Assembly (NCBI RefSeq): GCF_045037415.1
Contig: NZ_CP173438.1
Origin: Escherichia coli
GTDB taxonomy: Bacteria; Pseudomonadota; Gammaproteobacteria; Enterobacterales; Enterobacteriaceae
Strand: one strand, 5' to 3'
DNA: 64,000 nt
A model generated the notes under the pieces. The model had not been told where the DNA came from. It did no database searches and saw only the letters and a program-made list of their open reading frames with translations. The translations under genes and the position numbers were made by a program. This document shows, in pieces, positions 8,705 through 25,374 of this stretch (positions are counted from its first letter, which is position 1; every line of letters starts with the position of its first letter).

Positions 8705-8720
8705 AGCAACAATCGCACCA
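8705..8720 (-). promoter_or_regulatory. Candidate sigma-54 (-24/-12) promoter upstream of ygfK
   Basis: Minus strand reads TGGTGCGATTGTTGCT; GG and GC dinucleotides 10 bp apart, matches TGGCAC-N5-TTGCW at 14 of 16 positions; about 70 nt upstream of ygfK start. Confidence 0.4.
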
Positions 8721-8783
8721 CTCTTGCCAGGTTTGACGGGAAATATAAAAAAATGTGAGGCGGCTCGAAACTTAATGGCTTTT

Positions 8784-8799
8784 TGTGAATGAACTCACA
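8784..8799. promoter_or_regulatory. CRP-like palindrome TGTGA-N6-TCACA (CRP site or enhancer-binding-protein UAS)
   Basis: Sequence TGTGAATGAACTCACA, perfect inverted half-sites, about 70 bp upstream of the candidate -24 element. Confidence 0.4.
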
Positions 8800-9635: not shown

Positions 9636-10406
9636 GTGAAAAGTATAATTGACCCATCGGCATTATTCATTGATTTAGGCGCGCAGAAACGTCCCACTGT
9701 GATTTCTATTGTTGGTGCTGGGGGGAAAACCAGCTTGCTTTTTTGGCTGGCAGAACTGTTCCAGGCGAGTGGCAGGCGTGTATTAATCACTACGACGACA
9801 CATATGTTTATGCCAACATCTCACTGGCCCGTGGTTTTCTGTCGTGATCCCGCCATGCTTCCTCATGCGTCTTTTATATCCCCCATTTCATTTTGTTTTC
9901 ACTGCTGGAAAGCGAACCAGGGAAAAGTGCAGGGATTTACGCCAGAAGCGATTGATGCACTGGTACAACGACCAGAGTGTGACGTAATTCTCATTGAGGC
10001 AGATGGCTCGCGTGGAATGCCGTTAAAAGCGCCTGATGAGCACGAACCTTGCATACCTAAAAGCAGTTGCTGCGTGATTGCTGTGATGGGAGGACATATT
10101 TTGGGTGCGAAAGTGAGCACAGAAAATGTCCATCGCTGGTCGCAGTTTGCTGATATTACTGGGTTAACACCTGATGCACCCTTGCAACTGAGCGATCTCG
10201 TTGCGCTGGTTCGCCACCCTCAGGGCGCGTTTAAAAACGTACCGCAAGGTTGTCGGCGAGTCTGGTTCATTAACCGTTTTTCTCAATGTGAGAATGCGAT
10301 TGCGCAAAGCGAGCTCCTTCAACCGCTGCAACAACACAACGTAGAGGCAATCTGGCTGGGCGATATACAAGAACATCCTGCAATCGCGCGCAGATTTGTG
10401 AATTAG
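9636..10406 (+). CDS. yqeC: P-loop accessory protein of selenium-dependent molybdenum hydroxylase systems
   Basis: 256 aa, GTG start; Walker A IVGAGGKTS. Confidence 0.85.
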   Translation: MKSIIDPSALFIDLGAQKRPTVISIVGAGGKTSLLFWLAELFQASGRRVLITTTTHMFMPTSHWPVVFCRDPAMLPHASFISPISFCFHCWKANQGKVQGFTPEAIDALVQRPECDVILIEADGSRGMPLKAPDEHEPCIPKSSCCVIAVMGGHILGAKVSTENVHRWSQFADITGLTPDAPLQLSDLVALVRHPQGAFKNVPQGCRRVWFINRFSQCENAIAQSELLQPLQQHNVEAIWLGDIQEHPAIARRFVN

Positions 10407-15806: not shown

Positions 15807-17003
15807 TTAAGGTGCTACAGCGTGTTTGCCTTCCCAGACAACTTCGCGGTAGTGCTTCACGTCGGTGTCGCCTTCAGTGCTGATAACCAGCACCACGGCA
15901 TCTTTGTTCAGCGCCAGTTTTTCCATCAGGCTTTGACGTTGCGGGTGATAATGAACCGCTGCGAGAACGCCCAAACCGACAGCGCCGGATTCACCGGAGA
16001 TGATGCGCGGGTCGTTGCCGTACGGATTACCCAGCACGCGCATACCTAATGCGGCAACGCTGTCCTGGCAGGAGATGAATTGGGTGGCGCAGTTACGTAG
16101 GATTTCCCAGCCCAGCGGGTTAGGTTCGCCGCAGGCCAGGCCCGCCATGATGGTGGCCATATCACCGCCAACGTTGACGATGTCGCCTTTGACGCCGGAG
16201 CGATAAATACAGTCAGCTTTGTCAGGTTCAACAATAATGCTGTGCAGATTTTGCGGGCTATAGACGTCGACCAGATAACCCAGCACACCACCGGCCATTG
16301 CACCGACACCTGCTTGCAGCAGAACGTGTGTCGGGGTTACGCCCATTTCACGCATTTGCTCGACGGCTTCATCCGCCAGTGTTGCGTAGCCTTGCATGAT
16401 CCAGGTTGGGATTTTGGTGTAACCTTCCCATGCCGTGTCCTGTACCACTTCCCAGCCGTGCTGCTGCGCGTGTTGCATGGTCAGGCGAACGGTATCGTCA
16501 TAGTTCATATCCGTGACGATGCACTCGGCACCGAGGTTTAGAATGGCGTCAACGCGTTCCTGAGCAGAACCTTTCGGCATGTAAATCACCGCATTCTGTC
16601 CGAGTTGCTGAGCGGCCCATGCCACACCGCGCCCGTGGTTGCCGTCGGTGGTGGTCGCGAAAGTCATTTTTTCGCCAATGGCATTTTTCAGGTGCTCAAA
16701 TGATAGCGTTTCGATATCAAGATGATATTTTTCACACAATAATTGAGCGATGGCGTATGCGCCGCCGAGCATTTTGAAGGCGTTCAGACCGAAGCGTTTT
16801 GATTCGTCCTTAACGAGAATTTTCTTTACACCAAACAGGTTTGCGAGATCGTCCAGCGCACAAAGCGGTGTTGGGCGATAACCAGCAATTTTCTGGTGGA
16901 ACTGGCGTGCCAGTTTTGCCTGGCTTTGCGAAAAAAGCGGTGATGTTTCGCCGTTGAAAAATTTGTTATCGGCGATATCAATCTTTAATGAGAAAACGGA
17001 CAT
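15807..17003 (-). CDS. ygeX: PLP-dependent diaminopropionate ammonia-lyase
   Basis: 398 aa; fold-type II PLP enzyme features; position between ygeY and ygeW. Confidence 0.9.
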   Translation of the reverse strand: MSVFSLKIDIADNKFFNGETSPLFSQSQAKLARQFHQKIAGYRPTPLCALDDLANLFGVKKILVKDESKRFGLNAFKMLGGAYAIAQLLCEKYHLDIETLSFEHLKNAIGEKMTFATTTDGNHGRGVAWAAQQLGQNAVIYMPKGSAQERVDAILNLGAECIVTDMNYDDTVRLTMQHAQQHGWEVVQDTAWEGYTKIPTWIMQGYATLADEAVEQMREMGVTPTHVLLQAGVGAMAGGVLGYLVDVYSPQNLHSIIVEPDKADCIYRSGVKGDIVNVGGDMATIMAGLACGEPNPLGWEILRNCATQFISCQDSVAALGMRVLGNPYGNDPRIISGESGAVGLGVLAAVHYHPQRQSLMEKLALNKDAVVLVISTEGDTDVKHYREVVWEGKHAVAP

Positions 17004-18251: not shown

Positions 18252-18343
18252 AAAGTCCCGATAGTGGAATGACAGGCAAAGTGGTTTATTTCACTGTGAC
18301 GTGCCAAAGTGATTGGTGTTTTCACAGCTATACCTCGGACTAA

Positions 18344-18357
18344 CAATAAGTGTGCCA
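18344..18357 (-). promoter_or_regulatory. Weak candidate sigma-54 promoter upstream of ygeW
   Basis: Minus strand TGGCACACTTATTGTT: perfect -24 TGGCAC but -12 reads TTGT instead of TTGC. Confidence 0.25.
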
Positions 18358-18400
18358 GAATTATCCACGCGGCTGCGAAAGGCTAATTTGACGGATAATG

Positions 18401-18416
18401 TGTGGGGTTGATCACA
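18401..18416. promoter_or_regulatory. CRP-like palindrome in ygeW-ygeV divergent region
   Basis: TGTGGGGTTGATCACA (TGTGg-N6-TCACA). Confidence 0.3.
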
Positions 18417-18726
18417 TATTGATGCCAGTTTCCGGTTGTTTGTAAAATACGAAAACGTTTGGCTTTTTTTATTACGTTATTTATTTGCTGCTAAGTATCA
18501 GAAATAAGATAAAGAGGCAGGCTATCTCTCTTCAGTTTGATAAACTTGCCGCTGTAATTCTCATATTGATATAGAAATGTGATATCTCTTCCATAATTTT
18601 ATTAGAAAGTGATAAAAATCTTATGTTTTTATCAAAGCCAATTTCGCCTGAGTTAATATCATCATGATCTGTGAACCATCAACGTCTTCAATGATCGACT
18701 TTTAAGTAAGTCTGGAAGGTAAAGCT

Positions 18727-20505
18727 ATGGAGCTTGCGACTACGCAGTCAGTATTGATGCAAATTCAACCAACAATTCAGCGTTTTGCCAGAATGCTTGC
18801 CAGCGTTTTGCAGCTTGAGGTTGAGATCGTTGATGAAAACTTGTGTCGCGTCGCCGGAACGGGCGCGTATGGGAAGTTTCTTGGCCGCCAGTTGAGCGGC
18901 AACTCACGTCTGCTCCGCCACGTCCTGGAAACGAAAACTGAAAAAGTTGTGACACAGTCTCGCTTCGATCCCCTTTGTGAAGGTTGCGATAGTAAAGAAA
19001 ATTGCCGCGAAAAAGCATTTCTGGGTACGCCAGTCATTTTACAGGATCGTTGTGTTGGGGTGATAAGTTTGATTGCCGTTACCCACGAGCAACAAGAACA
19101 TATCAGTGATAATTTACGCGAATTTTCCGATTACGTTCGCCATATATCCACCATTTTTGTTTCTAAACTTCTGGAGGATCAGGGACCAGGAGATAACATC
19201 AGTAAAATATTCGCGACCATGATCGATAATATGGATCAGGGCGTGTTAGTGGTTGATGCTGATAATCGGGTTCAGTTTGTTAATCAGACAGCTTTAAAAA
19301 CACTCGGTGTTGTACAAAATAATATTATTGGAAAACCTGTTCGTTTCAGACCATTAACATTTGAGAGTAATTTTACCCATGGTCATATGCAACATATTGT
19401 TTCGTGGGATGATAAAAGTGAATTAATCATTGGTCAGTTGCATAACATCCAGGGCCGACAACTATTTTTAATGGCGTTTCACCAATCGCATACCAGTTTT
19501 TCTGTAGCAAATGCACCTGATGAACCGCATATTGAACAATTGGTTGGCGAGTGCCGTGTTATGCGGCAATTAAAACGACTCATTAGCCGTATTGCACCCA
19601 GCCCATCCAGCGTTATGGTGGTTGGTGAAAGCGGCACGGGTAAAGAAGTCGTCGCCCGTGCAATCCATAAGTTGAGCGGAAGACGGAATAAACCCTTTAT
19701 TGCTATCAACTGTGCCGCGATTCCGGAACAGCTTCTGGAGAGCGAACTGTTCGGTTATGTTAAAGGCGCATTTACTGGCGCTTCTGCCAACGGTAAAACA
19801 GGGTTGATTCAGGCGGCGAATACGGGCACGCTGTTTCTCGATGAAATTGGTGATATGCCATTAATGTTGCAGGCTAAATTACTGCGCGCTATTGAGGCGC
19901 GTGAAATTCTGCCGATTGGTGCCAGTAGCCCAATACAAGTCGACATCCGCATCATTTCTGCAACTAATCAGAATTTGGCCCAGTTCATTGCCGAAGGTAA
20001 ATTCCGCGAAGATCTCTTCTACCGACTTAATGTTATCCCGATAACTCTTCCACCGCTGCGTGAACGTCAGGAAGATATTGAATTACTAGTGCATTACTTT
20101 TTACATCTGCATACCCGTCGTCTGGGATCGGTTTATCCTGGCATTGCTCCTGATGTCGTCGAAATATTGCGTAAGCATCGTTGGCCCGGAAACCTGCGCG
20201 AGTTAAGCAATTTGATGGAATATCTGGTTAACGTTGTTCCTTCAGGTGAAGTTATCGACAGCACGCTATTGCCGCCAAATCTGCTGAATAATGGCACAAC
20301 GGAGCAAAGTGATGTAACAGAGGCCAGTGAGGCGCACCTGTCACTCGATGATGCGGGCGGCACGGCGCTGGAAGAGATGGAAAAGCAAATGATCCGCGAG
20401 GCGCTTTCACGTCATAACAGCAAGAAGGAAGTTGCTGATGAACTGGGCATCGGCATTGCTACGCTCTATCGCAAGATTAAGAAATATGAGTTGTTAAACA
20501 CATAA
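18727..20505 (+). CDS. ygeV: Sigma-54-dependent transcriptional activator (bacterial enhancer-binding protein) with N-terminal sensor domain
   Basis: 592 aa; Walker A GESGTGKE, GAFTGA sigma-54 contact motif, C-terminal HTH. Confidence 0.95.
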   Translation: MELATTQSVLMQIQPTIQRFARMLASVLQLEVEIVDENLCRVAGTGAYGKFLGRQLSGNSRLLRHVLETKTEKVVTQSRFDPLCEGCDSKENCREKAFLGTPVILQDRCVGVISLIAVTHEQQEHISDNLREFSDYVRHISTIFVSKLLEDQGPGDNISKIFATMIDNMDQGVLVVDADNRVQFVNQTALKTLGVVQNNIIGKPVRFRPLTFESNFTHGHMQHIVSWDDKSELIIGQLHNIQGRQLFLMAFHQSHTSFSVANAPDEPHIEQLVGECRVMRQLKRLISRIAPSPSSVMVVGESGTGKEVVARAIHKLSGRRNKPFIAINCAAIPEQLLESELFGYVKGAFTGASANGKTGLIQAANTGTLFLDEIGDMPLMLQAKLLRAIEAREILPIGASSPIQVDIRIISATNQNLAQFIAEGKFREDLFYRLNVIPITLPPLRERQEDIELLVHYFLHLHTRRLGSVYPGIAPDVVEILRKHRWPGNLRELSNLMEYLVNVVPSGEVIDSTLLPPNLLNNGTTEQSDVTEASEAHLSLDDAGGTALEEMEKQMIREALSRHNSKKEVADELGIGIATLYRKIKKYELLNT

Positions 20506-21907: not shown

Positions 21908-24166
21908 TCAAATCAATCCTGCCAGATGGAATTCTTCATATAATCGTTTTGGCGTTAGCGGCAGTGTATTGATTGCAACACCGGTAGCCATCTTCACCGC
22001 GTTACGAATAGCAGCGGCTACAGGAATTATGGGTGGCTCACCCAGTGACTTATGTCCGTATGCGGATTGCGGCTCATTGATTTCGACGAACGCGCTTTCC
22101 AGTTGTGGCAGATCCGGCATGGTCGGCATTTTGTAATCCAGCAGATTGGGGTTACGGACCACGCCGCTTTTCGCATCGATGATCATCTCTTCAAATAGCG
22201 CCCAGCCAATGCCCATCCCCATTCCGCCGTGTACCTGACCTTCTGCCAGCAGCGGATTAAGAATATGGCCCGAATCATGAACGTTGAGGATGCGGTTGAT
22301 GGTTACTTTACACAGTGCAATATCGACCGTCAGATCAACAAAGGTACAGCCAAACGCCGGTGGGTTAGTGGTGGTTTTGATGGAGCTTTCGGCAGAGAGC
22401 TGCCCGCCGCGTTCAGGGTGGTAGAAAGCGTCCATCGCCAAATCTTTTAACGACATTAACGGCTCTTCCGGTCGTTCAACCAGCACGATATGGCCTTTTA
22501 TCAGGGTCAGATTCATCGCTGACTGATGTAGCATGACTGCGGCGTGAGCGATGATTTTCTCTTTTAATAACAGTGCCGCACTGCGCAGCGCAGGCGCGGC
22601 AACATAGCTCTGACGTGAGGCAAATGCGCCGGGGTCGAATGGTGTAACGTCGGTGTCTTGTGTCGAAATTACGCGGACATCGCTGACCGGAACTCCCACG
22701 GTTTCTGCCACCATTTGCGAGAACACGGTGTCGGCACCCTGGCCGATTTCCGTCGCGCCGCTTTGCACGTTGATGGTTCCATCCTGATTCATCAACAGGC
22801 GCGCGCCTGCTATTTCTACGCCGACAGGCCAGGTGTTAGAGGTGTAGCTAAAACAGGCGACGCCAACGCCACGACGTAAATTGCCTTGCTGGTTCTGGCA
22901 CTCTGCACGGCGTTTTTCCCATTCAAAGATTTTCCGGCCTTTTTCAAGACACTCCGGCAACCCTGCGCTGTAAATACGTTTTCCCGTGAGCGGATTAGCA
23001 TCTCCTTCGCGGGCGGCGTTGCGTAAACGAATTTCAACAGGATCAATACCTAACGCTGTCGCGGCATCATCAAGCATAGACTCAACGGCAAATACGACTT
23101 GTGGCGCGCCATAACCACGCATCGCACCAGCCGAGGGGAGGTTGGTATAGCAGGTCTTTGAACTGTAAGCGTAGGCACAACGAGGATAAAGGTAAGCGAC
23201 TTTATTCCCCCCAGCAGAAGCAATGGAGTGCCCGTGAGATGCATAAGCGCCGGTGTTAGACAGAACATCCAGACTATAACCTTTCAATGTTCCGTCGCGG
23301 TTCACGCCCATTTGCCCGTCAATAGTAAAAGCGTGGCGGGTACGGGTTGCGAGGAAACACTCTTCACGGCTAAGAGAAACTTTCACCGGAATGCCGCCAA
23401 GTTTGCTTGTCAGGAATGCCGCCATTGGCTCTTCCAGTACATCCTGTTTATTACCAAAACCGCCACCGATAAACGGTTTGATGACTCGTACGCATGACCA
23501 GGGAATATCCAGCGCCTGACCAACCACGCGGCGAACAATGTGCGGGATCTGGGTGCTGGAAACGATGGTAATTCGCGAGTCATCCTCCATCCATGCCAGC
23601 GATGTCACGCTTTCCATATGACAATGTTGAATAACGGGCGTCTGATAGTGCCCCTGTACCTGGTAGTCGGCGGCATCGATTGTTTGTTGGACATTACCCG
23701 TCGACATCGTGCTTTGTTTCAGTAAATTGCCACCGTTATGGATTGGTGCAGCGTCTTCTGCCAGCGCCGCTTCTGACGAGGTGATAACGGGTAATTCTTG
23801 CCACTCAATGCTGACCAATTGCACCGCTTTTTCTGCCGTGAGTTCATCGCGGGCTACGACGATGGCAACGGCGTCACCATGATGACGAACATGACGCGTT
23901 AGCAGGGCACGATCGGCAGTATCGCGCTTGTTTTCGTCAAGTGTCCAGGCATGCCCTGCCGTGGCGAATGGGATTTCTGGCACATCTTCCCAGGTAAAAA
24001 TCGCCAGGACGCCCGGCAAACTCCTGGCTTGTTCATCATTAATACTTACGGCATAACCATGTGCGATAGGGCTACGTACATATTTCGCGTAACACATGCC
24101 CGCCATAACATAATCGTCAGTATATCGTGCCCGCCCGGTGACCTTAGCAATGGCATCGACGCGCAT
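21908..24166 (-). CDS. xdhA: Molybdopterin-binding subunit of xanthine dehydrogenase
   Basis: Start chosen at MRVDAIAKVTGRARYTDDY (752 aa) rather than the 765-aa upstream start; GGGFGNK motif. Confidence 0.93.
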   Translation of the reverse strand: MRVDAIAKVTGRARYTDDYVMAGMCYAKYVRSPIAHGYAVSINDEQARSLPGVLAIFTWEDVPEIPFATAGHAWTLDENKRDTADRALLTRHVRHHGDAVAIVVARDELTAEKAVQLVSIEWQELPVITSSEAALAEDAAPIHNGGNLLKQSTMSTGNVQQTIDAADYQVQGHYQTPVIQHCHMESVTSLAWMEDDSRITIVSSTQIPHIVRRVVGQALDIPWSCVRVIKPFIGGGFGNKQDVLEEPMAAFLTSKLGGIPVKVSLSREECFLATRTRHAFTIDGQMGVNRDGTLKGYSLDVLSNTGAYASHGHSIASAGGNKVAYLYPRCAYAYSSKTCYTNLPSAGAMRGYGAPQVVFAVESMLDDAATALGIDPVEIRLRNAAREGDANPLTGKRIYSAGLPECLEKGRKIFEWEKRRAECQNQQGNLRRGVGVACFSYTSNTWPVGVEIAGARLLMNQDGTINVQSGATEIGQGADTVFSQMVAETVGVPVSDVRVISTQDTDVTPFDPGAFASRQSYVAAPALRSAALLLKEKIIAHAAVMLHQSAMNLTLIKGHIVLVERPEEPLMSLKDLAMDAFYHPERGGQLSAESSIKTTTNPPAFGCTFVDLTVDIALCKVTINRILNVHDSGHILNPLLAEGQVHGGMGMGIGWALFEEMIIDAKSGVVRNPNLLDYKMPTMPDLPQLESAFVEINEPQSAYGHKSLGEPPIIPVAAAIRNAVKMATGVAINTLPLTPKRLYEEFHLAGLI

Positions 24167-24260
24167 GCATGATTCACCCGTAGCGGTTGCTTCCCGCGCT
24201 TCCATAGAAATCCCCTCGGTTTGAACATTTGGTTCTTATGGCAAAGATTTAGTCTTAGCA

Positions 24261-24276
24261 GGCAAGAATTACGCCA
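24261..24276 (-). promoter_or_regulatory. Weak candidate sigma-54 promoter upstream of xdhA
   Basis: Minus strand TGGCGTAATTCTTGCC; GG-N10-GC spacing preserved. Confidence 0.2.
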
Positions 24277-24618
24277 GAAACGACTATATGCGTGAGGGGA
24301 GGAAGGAAGTGTGATGACGTTAAAAAAACACAGATATGATACGAAACAGGACTCTGAATAGGGACAGTGATACGTATCAATATGAGTGGCGATAAAATCA
24401 ATGTGATAAATTAGGATTATTACGCATCAAGGTGGGAAATAGGGTAAAAGTCAGGAAATTCGATACCACTACAGCAAATATTTTGCTGATGATACTTCCC
24501 TTTGCCAAATGAAATTAACCTCTTTCTCTATTACATCGTTTTTCCAGAAGCAAGAGATTGGGTATCAAGAGGCTGGCTGCTATGATATGGCGTCTTGTTT
24601 TTTAAGCGAGGAAAGATT

Positions 24619-25374
24619 TTGAGTGCGGGACGCCTGAATAAAAAATCTCTGGGTATCGTGATGTTGTTATCGGTTGGACTGCTTTTGGCGGGCTGTTCGG
24701 GTAGCAAATCATCCGATACAGGAACGTATTCCGGCTCCGTTTACACCGTGAAACGGGGGGATACGCTATATCGTATTTCGCGCACCACGGGAACCAGCGT
24801 AAAAGAACTGGCGCGACTGAACGGCATTTCCCCCCCTTACACCATTGAAGTAGGTCAGAAACTAAAACTGGGTGGGGCGAAAAGTAGCAGTAGTACACGT
24901 AAATCAACCGCCAAATCCACGACCAAAACCGCATCGGTTACACCGTCATCAGCGGTACCGAAATCTTCCTGGCCGCCAGTAGGGCAACGTTGTTGGTTAT
25001 GGCCAACGACAGGGAAAGTTATCATGCCGTATTCGACAGCAGATGGCGGCAATAAAGGGATTGATATCTCAGCTCCACGAGGTACACCTATTTACGCCGC
25101 GGGTGCAGGAAAGGTGGTGTATGTGGGCAACCAGCTGCGTGGCTACGGTAATCTCATCATGATTAAACACAGTGAAGATTACATTACGGCTTACGCTCAT
25201 AATGACACGATGCTGGTAAATAATGGGCAAAGCGTGAAGGCTGGGCAAAAAATCGCCACTATGGGGAGCACTGATGCGGCATCTGTTCGCCTGCATTTCC
25301 AGATTCGTTACCGTGCAACGGCAATTGATCCGCTACGTTACTTGCCGCCTCAGGGCAGCAAGCCAAAATGCTGA
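24619..25374 (+). CDS. ygeR: LysM plus M23/LytM-domain lipoprotein (amidase-activator type)
   Basis: Lipobox LLAGCS, LysM segment YTVKRGDTLYRISR, C-terminal M23-like domain; TTG start at 24619 chosen to give 251 aa, alternative ATG at 24595. Confidence 0.85.
   Translation: MSAGRLNKKSLGIVMLLSVGLLLAGCSGSKSSDTGTYSGSVYTVKRGDTLYRISRTTGTSVKELARLNGISPPYTIEVGQKLKLGGAKSSSSTRKSTAKSTTKTASVTPSSAVPKSSWPPVGQRCWLWPTTGKVIMPYSTADGGNKGIDISAPRGTPIYAAGAGKVVYVGNQLRGYGNLIMIKHSEDYITAYAHNDTMLVNNGQSVKAGQKIATMGSTDAASVRLHFQIRYRATAIDPLRYLPPQGSKPKC

Follow-up and report, generated by a model that had tools for sequence, protein, structure and literature searches.

Sigma-54 promoters of the classical type, such as NtrC-activated glnAp2, combine a -24/-12 element with two phased activator sites. 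We analyzed a 64-kb stretch of an Escherichia coli genome (contig NZ_CP173438.1; the window below means this whole stretch) and focused on the 452-bp spacer between the divergent genes xdhA and actS (formerly ygeR), which has a comparable architecture. As at glnAp2, two dyad sites lie upstream of the sigma-54 element in the xdhA-actS spacer, at a distance of over 100 bp and on the same face of the helix, and the candidate activator, YgeV (also named IsrR), is an AAA+ protein with a GAFTGA motif and a C-terminal Fis-type helix-turn-helix. The two systems differ in their recognition sequence and in the sensory module of the activator, which is a PAS domain in YgeV rather than a receiver domain. 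Furthermore, no recognizable IHF site lies between the enhancer and the promoter of xdhA, where a T-tract and a TCACA block are found instead. From the evidence presented here, we consider it likely that the spacer carries the sigma-54 promoter of xdhABC together with an enhancer pair, with YgeV as the protein that most likely binds it.

The second system to which this locus can be compared is the DioR regulon, a sigma-54 regulon that has been reconstructed in Clostridiales (Nie et al. 2019, PMC6615313). The DioR targets are dpaL-pyrC-argE, ygeW-ygfK-ssnA-ygeY, yqeB, yqeC-ygfJ-yqeB-xdhC, pbuX, and hyp-xdhABC (PMC6615313). Predicted DioR enhancer sites, among them ATTTATCATAATGATAAGG, ATTTATCAAAGTGATAAGT, and AATTCTCGAATTGAGAATA (PMC6615313 supplement), often come two or three to a promoter and lie 100-240 bp upstream (PMC6615313). 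The same TATCA/TCTCA-N3-TGATA/TGAGA motif, and a sigma-54 activator over the same genes, are found in the E. coli cluster. Specifically, the site upstream of E. coli ygfK (CTTTATCATAATGATAAGG) agrees with the Clostridium botulinum ygeW site of the DioR regulon (ATTTATCATAATGATAAGG) at 17 of 19 positions. In contrast to the DioR sites, those of E. coli belong to another phylum and have less AT-rich flanks, and the sites at xdhA are hybrids (TATCA-N3-TGAG); binding is predicted in both systems.

The sigma-54 promoter of xdhABC and the idea of a single regulon are already known from published work. The xdhA site corresponds to an intergenic peak (OS29) from chromatin immunoprecipitation sequencing (ChIP-seq), where sigma-54 was bound in vivo with an occupancy (fold above threshold, FAT) of 11, compared with 26 at ygfK (OS31) and 3 at ygeW (OS30) (Bonocora 2015, PMC4591121). 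The start predicted for OS29 is 84 nt from xdhA, and the same study gives the EcoCyc status of the promoter as "experimentally confirmed" (PMC4591121). The identical sequence had been placed at -110 to -93 from the K-12 xdhA start, and xdhA mRNA increased 4.9-fold with sigma-54 overexpression and decreased 2.1-fold in an rpoN deletion (Zhao et al. 2010, PMC2831329). A response of xdhA to rpoN, whose absence would have refuted the original prediction for this spacer, is in effect on record. In the PRECISE-1K study, the YgeV iModulon includes xdhABC and ygeWXY, and a later gene list for this iModulon adds hyuA, ygfK, ssnA, ygfM, xdhD, ygfT, and uacT. The proposal that xdhA, ygeW, and ygfK belong to one sigma-54/YgeV regulon was therefore borne out by the existing literature.

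The sigma-54 promoter of xdhABC

The promoter of K-12, xdhAp, is the same element at the same locus and lies at an equal distance from xdhA. It reads CTGGCGTAAATCTTGCC, one spacer base apart from CTGGCGTAATTCTTGCC in the window, which is thus a strain variant. In the window, the element runs from 24277 to 24261 on the minus strand and has the GG-N10-GC arrangement that had been described for it, with exactly 10 nt between the two doublets. The more specific form TGGC-N7-TTGC is satisfied by TGGCGTAATTCTTGC (24276 to 24262, minus strand).

We scored the element with a 17-position sigma-54 matrix. Its source was the set of 135 ChIP-seq motifs tabulated by Bonocora et al. 2015 (Tables 1 and 2), from which the five belonging to this locus were removed (n = 130 sites). 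With 15.26 bits, the element was the best match on either strand of the window and, set against the 130 training sites, stood at the 71st percentile. The ygfK and ygeW promoters scored lower (14.17 and 13.82 bits, respectively), and the published position-specific scoring matrix of Bonocora ranks the three in the same way (xdhA, 10.93; ygfK, 10.06; ygeW, 9.84; PMC4591121). The xdhA element had been rated the weakest match of the three, a rating that both matrices reverse: the site is strong, not weak. Comparison with shuffled controls, which had also been suggested, gave a mixed picture. The score of the xdhA element was attained in 0.5% of 20,000 shuffles of the 452-bp spacer (P = 0.005), but dinucleotide-shuffled versions of the whole 64-kb window yielded approximately one match that was equally good. 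By itself, the sequence score is modest evidence for an xdhA promoter.

To this score we can add the conservation of the element. Scanning for XdhA in one genome per species, we obtained 32 loci with XdhA identities down to 71%, 28 of which had a usable upstream region. These represent 11 genera: Escherichia, Citrobacter, Kluyvera, Atlantibacter, Buttiauxella, Hafnia, Enterobacillus, Yokenella, Klebsiella (K. indica), Trabulsiella, and Pluralibacter. A sigma-54 element with a score of 13.5-16.6 bits was found upstream of xdhA in all 28 usable loci. The TGGCGT and TTGC sequences were invariant, while the 5-nt spacer drifted (AATTC, AGTTA, AAATT, ACATC, GCATC, TATC, and others). Position relative to xdhA was also kept, with a leader of 28-59 nt to the conserved ATG. 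An invariant core, a drifting spacer, and a kept position are together the pattern of a functional -24/-12 promoter.

The distance between this promoter and xdhA depends on the start codon. RefSeq places the xdhA start of the window strain at 24205, which is 13 codons upstream of the one annotated in K-12 (24166). The claim that the element lies about 85 nt upstream of xdhA holds for the K-12-type ATG, 84 nt from the predicted transcription start, and does not hold for the conserved ATG at 24205. If translation starts at 24205, the xdhA leader would be approximately 45 nt. An in-frame ATG preceded by a good Shine-Dalgarno sequence occurs 13-14 codons upstream of the K-12 start in 29 of 29 orthologous regions, and the resulting N-terminal extension is kept at the protein level (MEAREATATGESC). 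These comparisons suggest that xdhA is probably annotated too short in K-12 (752 amino acids [aa]; start at 24166) and probably correctly in RefSeq (765 aa; start at 24205). The spacer and leader had no match to an RNA family in Rfam at E <= 1, and a terminator search of the spacer found none.

A phased pair of candidate enhancer sites and its motif across the cluster

Upstream of the promoter, we identified two conserved sites, TATCAyAATGAk and cTCAtwwTGATA, that share a TCA-N3-TGA core (Table 1). The two cores are 21 bp apart. This corresponds to two helical turns, so that both sites are on the same face of the DNA. A repeat finder independently reported ATCAATGTGA and ATCAATATGA with the same spacing of 21 bp. 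We scanned 16 species; in 15 of them, the centers of the sites fell at -151 to -154 and at -129 to -134, positions that are thus kept to approximately 2 bp. The exception was Hafnia, where the pair lies further upstream (-191 and -171) and retains a spacing of 20 bp. In Trabulsiella, only five bases separate the distal site from the end of a terminator-like hairpin upstream of it, which places the two-site module at the outer limit of the control region. The Reg-Seq study lists the ygeR promoter without regulator sites, which fits an enhancer that serves xdhA rather than actS but is not proof of it.

The motif is not confined to xdhA. The sequence TATCANNNTGA is expected 1.8 times in the window and occurs 10 times, a count that was not attained in any of 100 shuffles. 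Seven of the 10 matches are in the control spacers of xdhA, ygeV-ygeW, and ygfK, which make up 1.9% of the window. As a guard against circularity, we trained an enterobacterial matrix only on sites upstream of xdhA from genera other than Escherichia and then scanned it over the E. coli window. The highest score (21.2 bits) belonged to the site upstream of ygfK; next came the two sites at xdhA (18.9 and 18.7 bits) and then the ygeV-ygeW spacer (17.0 bits). Four distinct sites in the window thus scored at least 17 bits, compared with an expectation of 0.13. Across 346 kb from 16 species, all but one of 47 sites with at least 14 bits were found 129-236 bp upstream of a match to the sigma-54 matrix. 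The distance between motif and promoter was fixed for each operon: it was -235/-236 at ygeW in 12 species, while for ygfK-type promoters it was -198/-199 in Kluyvera and -202 in E. coli.

We also scanned the window with a symmetric DioR matrix that was made only from 20 published clostridial sites. Four sites stood out, in the ygeV-ygeW spacer (18565; 18.7), inside yqeC (10287; 17.6), upstream of ygfK (8896; 16.1), and at the distal site of xdhA (24402; 14.0), with the next match at 9.7. In shuffled sequence, 0.35 such sites are expected. Three of the four are sites that the enterobacterial motif had already found.

Other occurrences of the motif deserve mention in their own right. The site inside yqeC (TTTTCTCAATGTGAGAATG, 10278-10296), which is the second-best match to the clostridial DioR motif in the window, is in the 3' end of the gene, approximately 166 bp upstream of yqeB. 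It is located about 223 bp downstream of the start predicted for a published intragenic sigma-54 site (10037-10053, plus strand), which faces yqeB. This may represent a fourth unit controlled by YgeV, with an enhancer downstream of its promoter. Inside dpaL (ygeX), there is a palindromic full TATCA-N3-TGATA (TATCAAGATGATA, 16715-16727) that has 12.8 bits with the enterobacterial matrix and could be an internal site or a product of chance. In three Kluyvera loci, a ygfK-type sigma-54 promoter (GTGGTGCGAATGTTGCT) with a TATCATAATGAGA site at -198 directly follows xdhC, at approximately +3870 to +4030 from the xdhA start, and the ygeV gene is absent within 10 kb. The cluster is arranged differently in Kluyvera; nonetheless, pairs of promoter and enhancer are kept.

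The intervening block, the 12-bp palindrome, and the layout of the locus

Between the candidate enhancer and the promoter is a conserved block, tTTtttAa-N3-caTCACA-N-TT, that was found without insertions or deletions relative to the promoter in 17 species. The upstream region of ygfK also has a TCACA at precisely this position, -64 to -60 (approximately 8754-8758). We considered two proteins for this block. For IHF, inspection by eye showed no match to the consensus WATCAANNNNTTR: the block reads CATCACACTT, with the TT two bases early, and the reverse strand does not fit. CRP is doubtful because the left half, TTTTA, is without both G residues. CRP-type sites do occur between the enhancer and the sigma-54 promoter at the other two operons. 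Upstream of ygfK, TGTGAGTTCATTCACA (8784-8799, minus strand; center at -97.5) has a perfect core, and upstream of ygeW, TGTGATCAACCCCACA (18401-18416, minus strand; center at -77.5) matches at 9 of 10 positions; each is conserved in other genera. These centers and that of the TCACA block of xdhA (-67.5) differ by 10 and 20 bp, which would put all three on one shared helical face. In genomic SELEX (systematic evolution of ligands by exponential enrichment), the targets of CRP include ygfK, ygeV<>ygeW, and ygfT<>ygfU, and xdhA/ygeR is not listed.

A separate element of the ygeV-ygeW spacer, AGCCAAACGTTTTCGT (18449-18464, minus strand), lies at approximately -125 from the ygeW start and is conserved in Escherichia, Citrobacter, Atlantibacter, Yokenella, K. 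indica, and Trabulsiella. Its sequence is close to that of a PurR operator. A 2015 computational paper placed ygeW within the predicted PurR regulon.

The upstream element to which the original prediction drew attention was a 12-bp palindrome. It is present and perfect, although one base away from the position given for it (24367-24378), and it was rightly placed about 100 bp further upstream, as its center is 104 bp from that of the promoter. Its role did not stand up. Perfect 12-bp palindromes are found in the window at chance frequency (16 seen, 15.6 expected), and only the CGTATCA part (24373-24379) is conserved outside E. coli, where it belongs to the proximal site; the module that is kept is the two-site pair. 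The TGATA part (24368-24372) is missing in Escherichia albertii, Escherichia whittamii, cryptic Escherichia, and all other genera compared. When anchored on the promoter and read on the xdhA-sense strand, the sequence is CTCATATTGATACGTATCACTG in E. coli, CTCATATTGATACGCTCTCC in E. albertii, and CTCATATTGATAAACTGCAC in E. whittamii, and the remaining genera also diverge immediately past TGATA(CG). Within E. coli, K-12 carries the full palindrome, and the 44-bp segment around it is found in 5,330 of 5,426 complete genomes. Presence across E. coli combined with absence from its relatives makes the palindrome a feature of E. coli sensu stricto. Taken together, the comparison indicates that the palindrome does not act as an independent operator and that what it has beyond CGTATCA is a lineage-specific extension. 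It may be a by-product of sequence turnover beside the proximal site.

We weighed two ways in which the palindrome might nevertheless function. One is that it serves E. coli as an auxiliary half-site, where the extra TATCA (24368-24372) and a further CGTATCA (24337-24343) add low-affinity contacts for YgeV that aid the assembly of an oligomer. The palindrome would then have a quantitative effect in E. coli despite its absence from other genera. The 64-kb window has six CGTATCA heptamers, and three of them are indeed within 43 bp here. Additional TATCAC-like elements are found in other genera, downstream of the proximal site at distances that vary, and the surrounding segment is nearly universal in E. 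coli, including K-12 and the B2 strains. However, recent ancestry by itself would account for conservation within E. coli, and neither E. albertii, E. whittamii, nor any other genus has the extra half. Moreover, this TATCA lacks a TGA at N3 spacing and is thus an incomplete site that scores in neither matrix. We therefore regard an auxiliary role as rather unlikely. The other possibility is that a dimeric global regulator uses the palindrome as an operator by itself; CRP would fit best (AGTGA-N6-TCAAT, 24366-24381). The CRP-type sites of ygfK and ygeW, both of them in the genomic SELEX list, lend this some appeal, as does a Crp site in the ygeV-ygeW spacer that is also mentioned in the literature. 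At the palindrome, though, the match to TGTGA-N6-TCACA (center at -123.5) is limited to 7 of 10 positions, a level often reached by chance; conservation of the AGTGA half is confined to E. coli; the palindrome itself is at chance frequency; and the absence of xdhA/ygeR from the CRP SELEX list argues against CRP binding. We rejected CRP on these grounds, and a stand-alone operator of this kind is very improbable.

Two further observations concern the spacer sequence around the palindrome. Between the proximal site and the T-tract (24330-24372), approximately 45 bp of E. coli sensu stricto sequence is unrelated to its counterpart in E. albertii, E. whittamii, and cryptic Escherichia. The two versions have equal length, and the segment was thus replaced without a change in helical phase. 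In the half of the spacer that is proximal to actS, there is a 17-bp palindrome (CAGCAAATATTTTGCTG, 24472-24488), one arm of which has one mismatch in K-12.

The coordinates of the features are collected in Table 1. The limits from which the spacer was originally described (24167-24618) agree with the K-12 annotation, and the orientation of the window is inverted relative to K-12. From 24100 to 24700, the window is 100% identical to strain SK1144. Its spacer is 99.8% identical to that of ABU 83972 and 96% identical to that of K-12, and the likeness is to strains of phylogroup B2. The ygeV gene is 40 bp from xdhC in the window, on its downstream side, and adjoins xdhC in most loci. On the minus strand, ygeW and its operon are found below 18247, and ygfK is found below 8631.

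Table 1. Features of the xdhA-actS spacer and of related control regions in the window. Positions with a minus sign are relative to the predicted transcription start unless stated otherwise.
Feature	Coordinates	Strand	Remarks
xdhABC sigma-54 (-24/-12) promoter, CTGGCGTAATTCTTGCC	24261..24277	-	GG 24275/24274, GC 24263/24262
Predicted xdhA transcription start	24250	-	12 nt downstream of the -12 C (rule: motif center + 19)
xdhA Shine-Dalgarno sequence and ATG	24203..24217	-	GAGGGGA 24217-24211, ATG 24205-24203; conserved; likely true start
Conserved block, TTTTTTTAACGTCATCACACTT	24307..24329	-	-79 to -57; TCACA at -64 to -60
Proximal candidate enhancer site	24373..24386		Minus strand CTCATATTGATACG; TCA-N3-TGA core 24377-24385, center -131; 18.9 bits
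Distal candidate enhancer site	24396..24410		Minus strand TTTATCACATTGATT; core 24398-24406, center -152; 18.7 bits
Perfect palindrome, TGATACGTATCA	24368..24379		24373-24379 is the outer flank of the proximal site; 24368-24372 specific to E. coli sensu stricto
Third CGTATCA copy, TGATACGAAACA	24337..24348		31 bp from the palindrome; E. coli-specific
xdhA coding sequence	21908..24205	-	First gene of xdhABC; followed by xdhB, xdhC
actS (ygeR)	starts 24619	+	
ygeV (isrR), enhancer-binding protein	18727..20505	+	PAS, sigma-54-interaction AAA+, HTH_8
Two TATCA-N3-TGA sites, ygeV-ygeW spacer	18530..18573		Centers -205 and -234 from the ygeW start
ygeW sigma-54 promoter, CTGGCACACTTATTGTT	18342..18358	-	
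Palindromic site upstream of ygfK, TTATCATAATGATAA	8888..8904		Center -202; 21.2 bits, rank 1
ygfK sigma-54 promoter, GTGGTGCGATTGTTGCT	8705..8721	-	

YgeV as the candidate activator

Promoters of the sigma-54 class require a cognate AAA+ enhancer-binding protein with a GAFTGA motif, and YgeV is such a protein. It has a PAS domain, a Sigma54_activat domain (E = 1e-70) with GAFTGA at residue 347, an AAA lid, and a C-terminal HTH_8, and it is the only regulator encoded in the cluster. Based on the motif and its distribution, we lean toward the view that the phased TATCA-N3-TGA pair is the operator of YgeV (IsrR). The motif would then define a YgeV regulon in Enterobacterales, comprising xdhABC, ygeWXY-hyuA, ygfK-ssnA, and possibly the yqeC site, and it would be shared with DioR.

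Several points weigh against an enhancer bound by YgeV at a sigma-54 promoter. The searchable literature holds neither YgeV binding data nor a defined operator, and the mBio paper that renamed YgeV to IsrR defines no DNA site. Kluyvera, Hafnia, and Enterobacillus have the motif but no YgeV orthologue within 10 kb. The matches listed in our search for YgeV homologues were near-identical copies from E. coli. When genomic SELEX was carried out with the sigma-54 holoenzyme, the ygeV-ygeW spacer was recovered and the xdhA promoter was not listed. The block at -79 to -57 matches neither the IHF consensus nor a good CRP consensus. Last, the proximal site of xdhA scores -2.4 with the clostridial DioR matrix because its flanks are not AT-rich and one of its halves is CTCA rather than TATCA.

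These points bear on two other explanations. The TATCA-N3-TGA sites might be bound by a different regulator, with YgeV acting from solution or from other sites. Besides the three genera in which the motif persists without a nearby ygeV, similar TATCA-N3-TGA motifs have been predicted for the clostridial activator BldR. Yet the placement of 46 of 47 motif sites upstream of sigma-54 promoters of this very cluster, the agreement with the motif predicted for the clostridial sigma-54 activator of the same genes, and the standing of YgeV, with its HTH_8, as the sole regulator of the cluster together make another binder improbable. Alternatively, sigma-54 might bind the xdhA element silently while xdhABC is expressed from a sigma-70 promoter that has escaped recognition. 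Most sigma-54 binding sites were without transcription under the conditions of Bonocora et al. (PMC4591121), and the YgeV iModulon is seldom active. The spacer also has a single sigma-70-like match (24508 to 24480), but it is weak and at chance level (1 found, 1.1 expected). Furthermore, xdhA mRNA responds to rpoN, and conservation across 11 genera extends to the -24/-12 bases, to their distance from the start codon, and to the phased enhancer, so we give the idea of a silent site very little credence.

We return to the reading in which YgeV activates xdhABC from the two-site enhancer. Either our analysis or the literature shows that the promoter sequence is present and conserved, that sigma-54 occupies it, that xdhA responds to rpoN, and that the motif is conserved, keeps its position, and recurs across the regulon. 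On the mechanism that we propose, sigma-54 RNA polymerase would wait as a closed complex on CTGGCGTAATTCTTGCC, and YgeV would bind the two same-face sites approximately 105-130 bp upstream of it. A signal linked to purine or urate catabolism would presumably activate YgeV, which would oligomerize on its sites, loop to the promoter, and open the sigma-54 complex by ATP hydrolysis. The conserved T-tract and TCACA block (-79 to -57) may aid this looping. Transcription would then start near 24250. Because the same motif is present at the promoters of ygeW and ygfK, activation of this kind would coregulate the cluster for purine and urate degradation.

Assigning the enhancer in E. coli and other Enterobacterales is a modest extension of a motif that was published for Clostridia. 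It is of relevance to specialists in the pathway and leaves general concepts unchanged. If true, it would mean that the regulatory code of the anaerobic purine/urate cluster has been kept between Firmicutes and Proteobacteria or has been transferred along with the genes. The phased two-site motif is a concrete candidate operator for YgeV/IsrR, a regulator that is tied to urate degradation in the gut and to the virulence of enterohemorrhagic E. coli (EHEC). As such, it would make footprinting of YgeV, prediction of its regulon, and the engineering of urate-degrading probiotics more direct.

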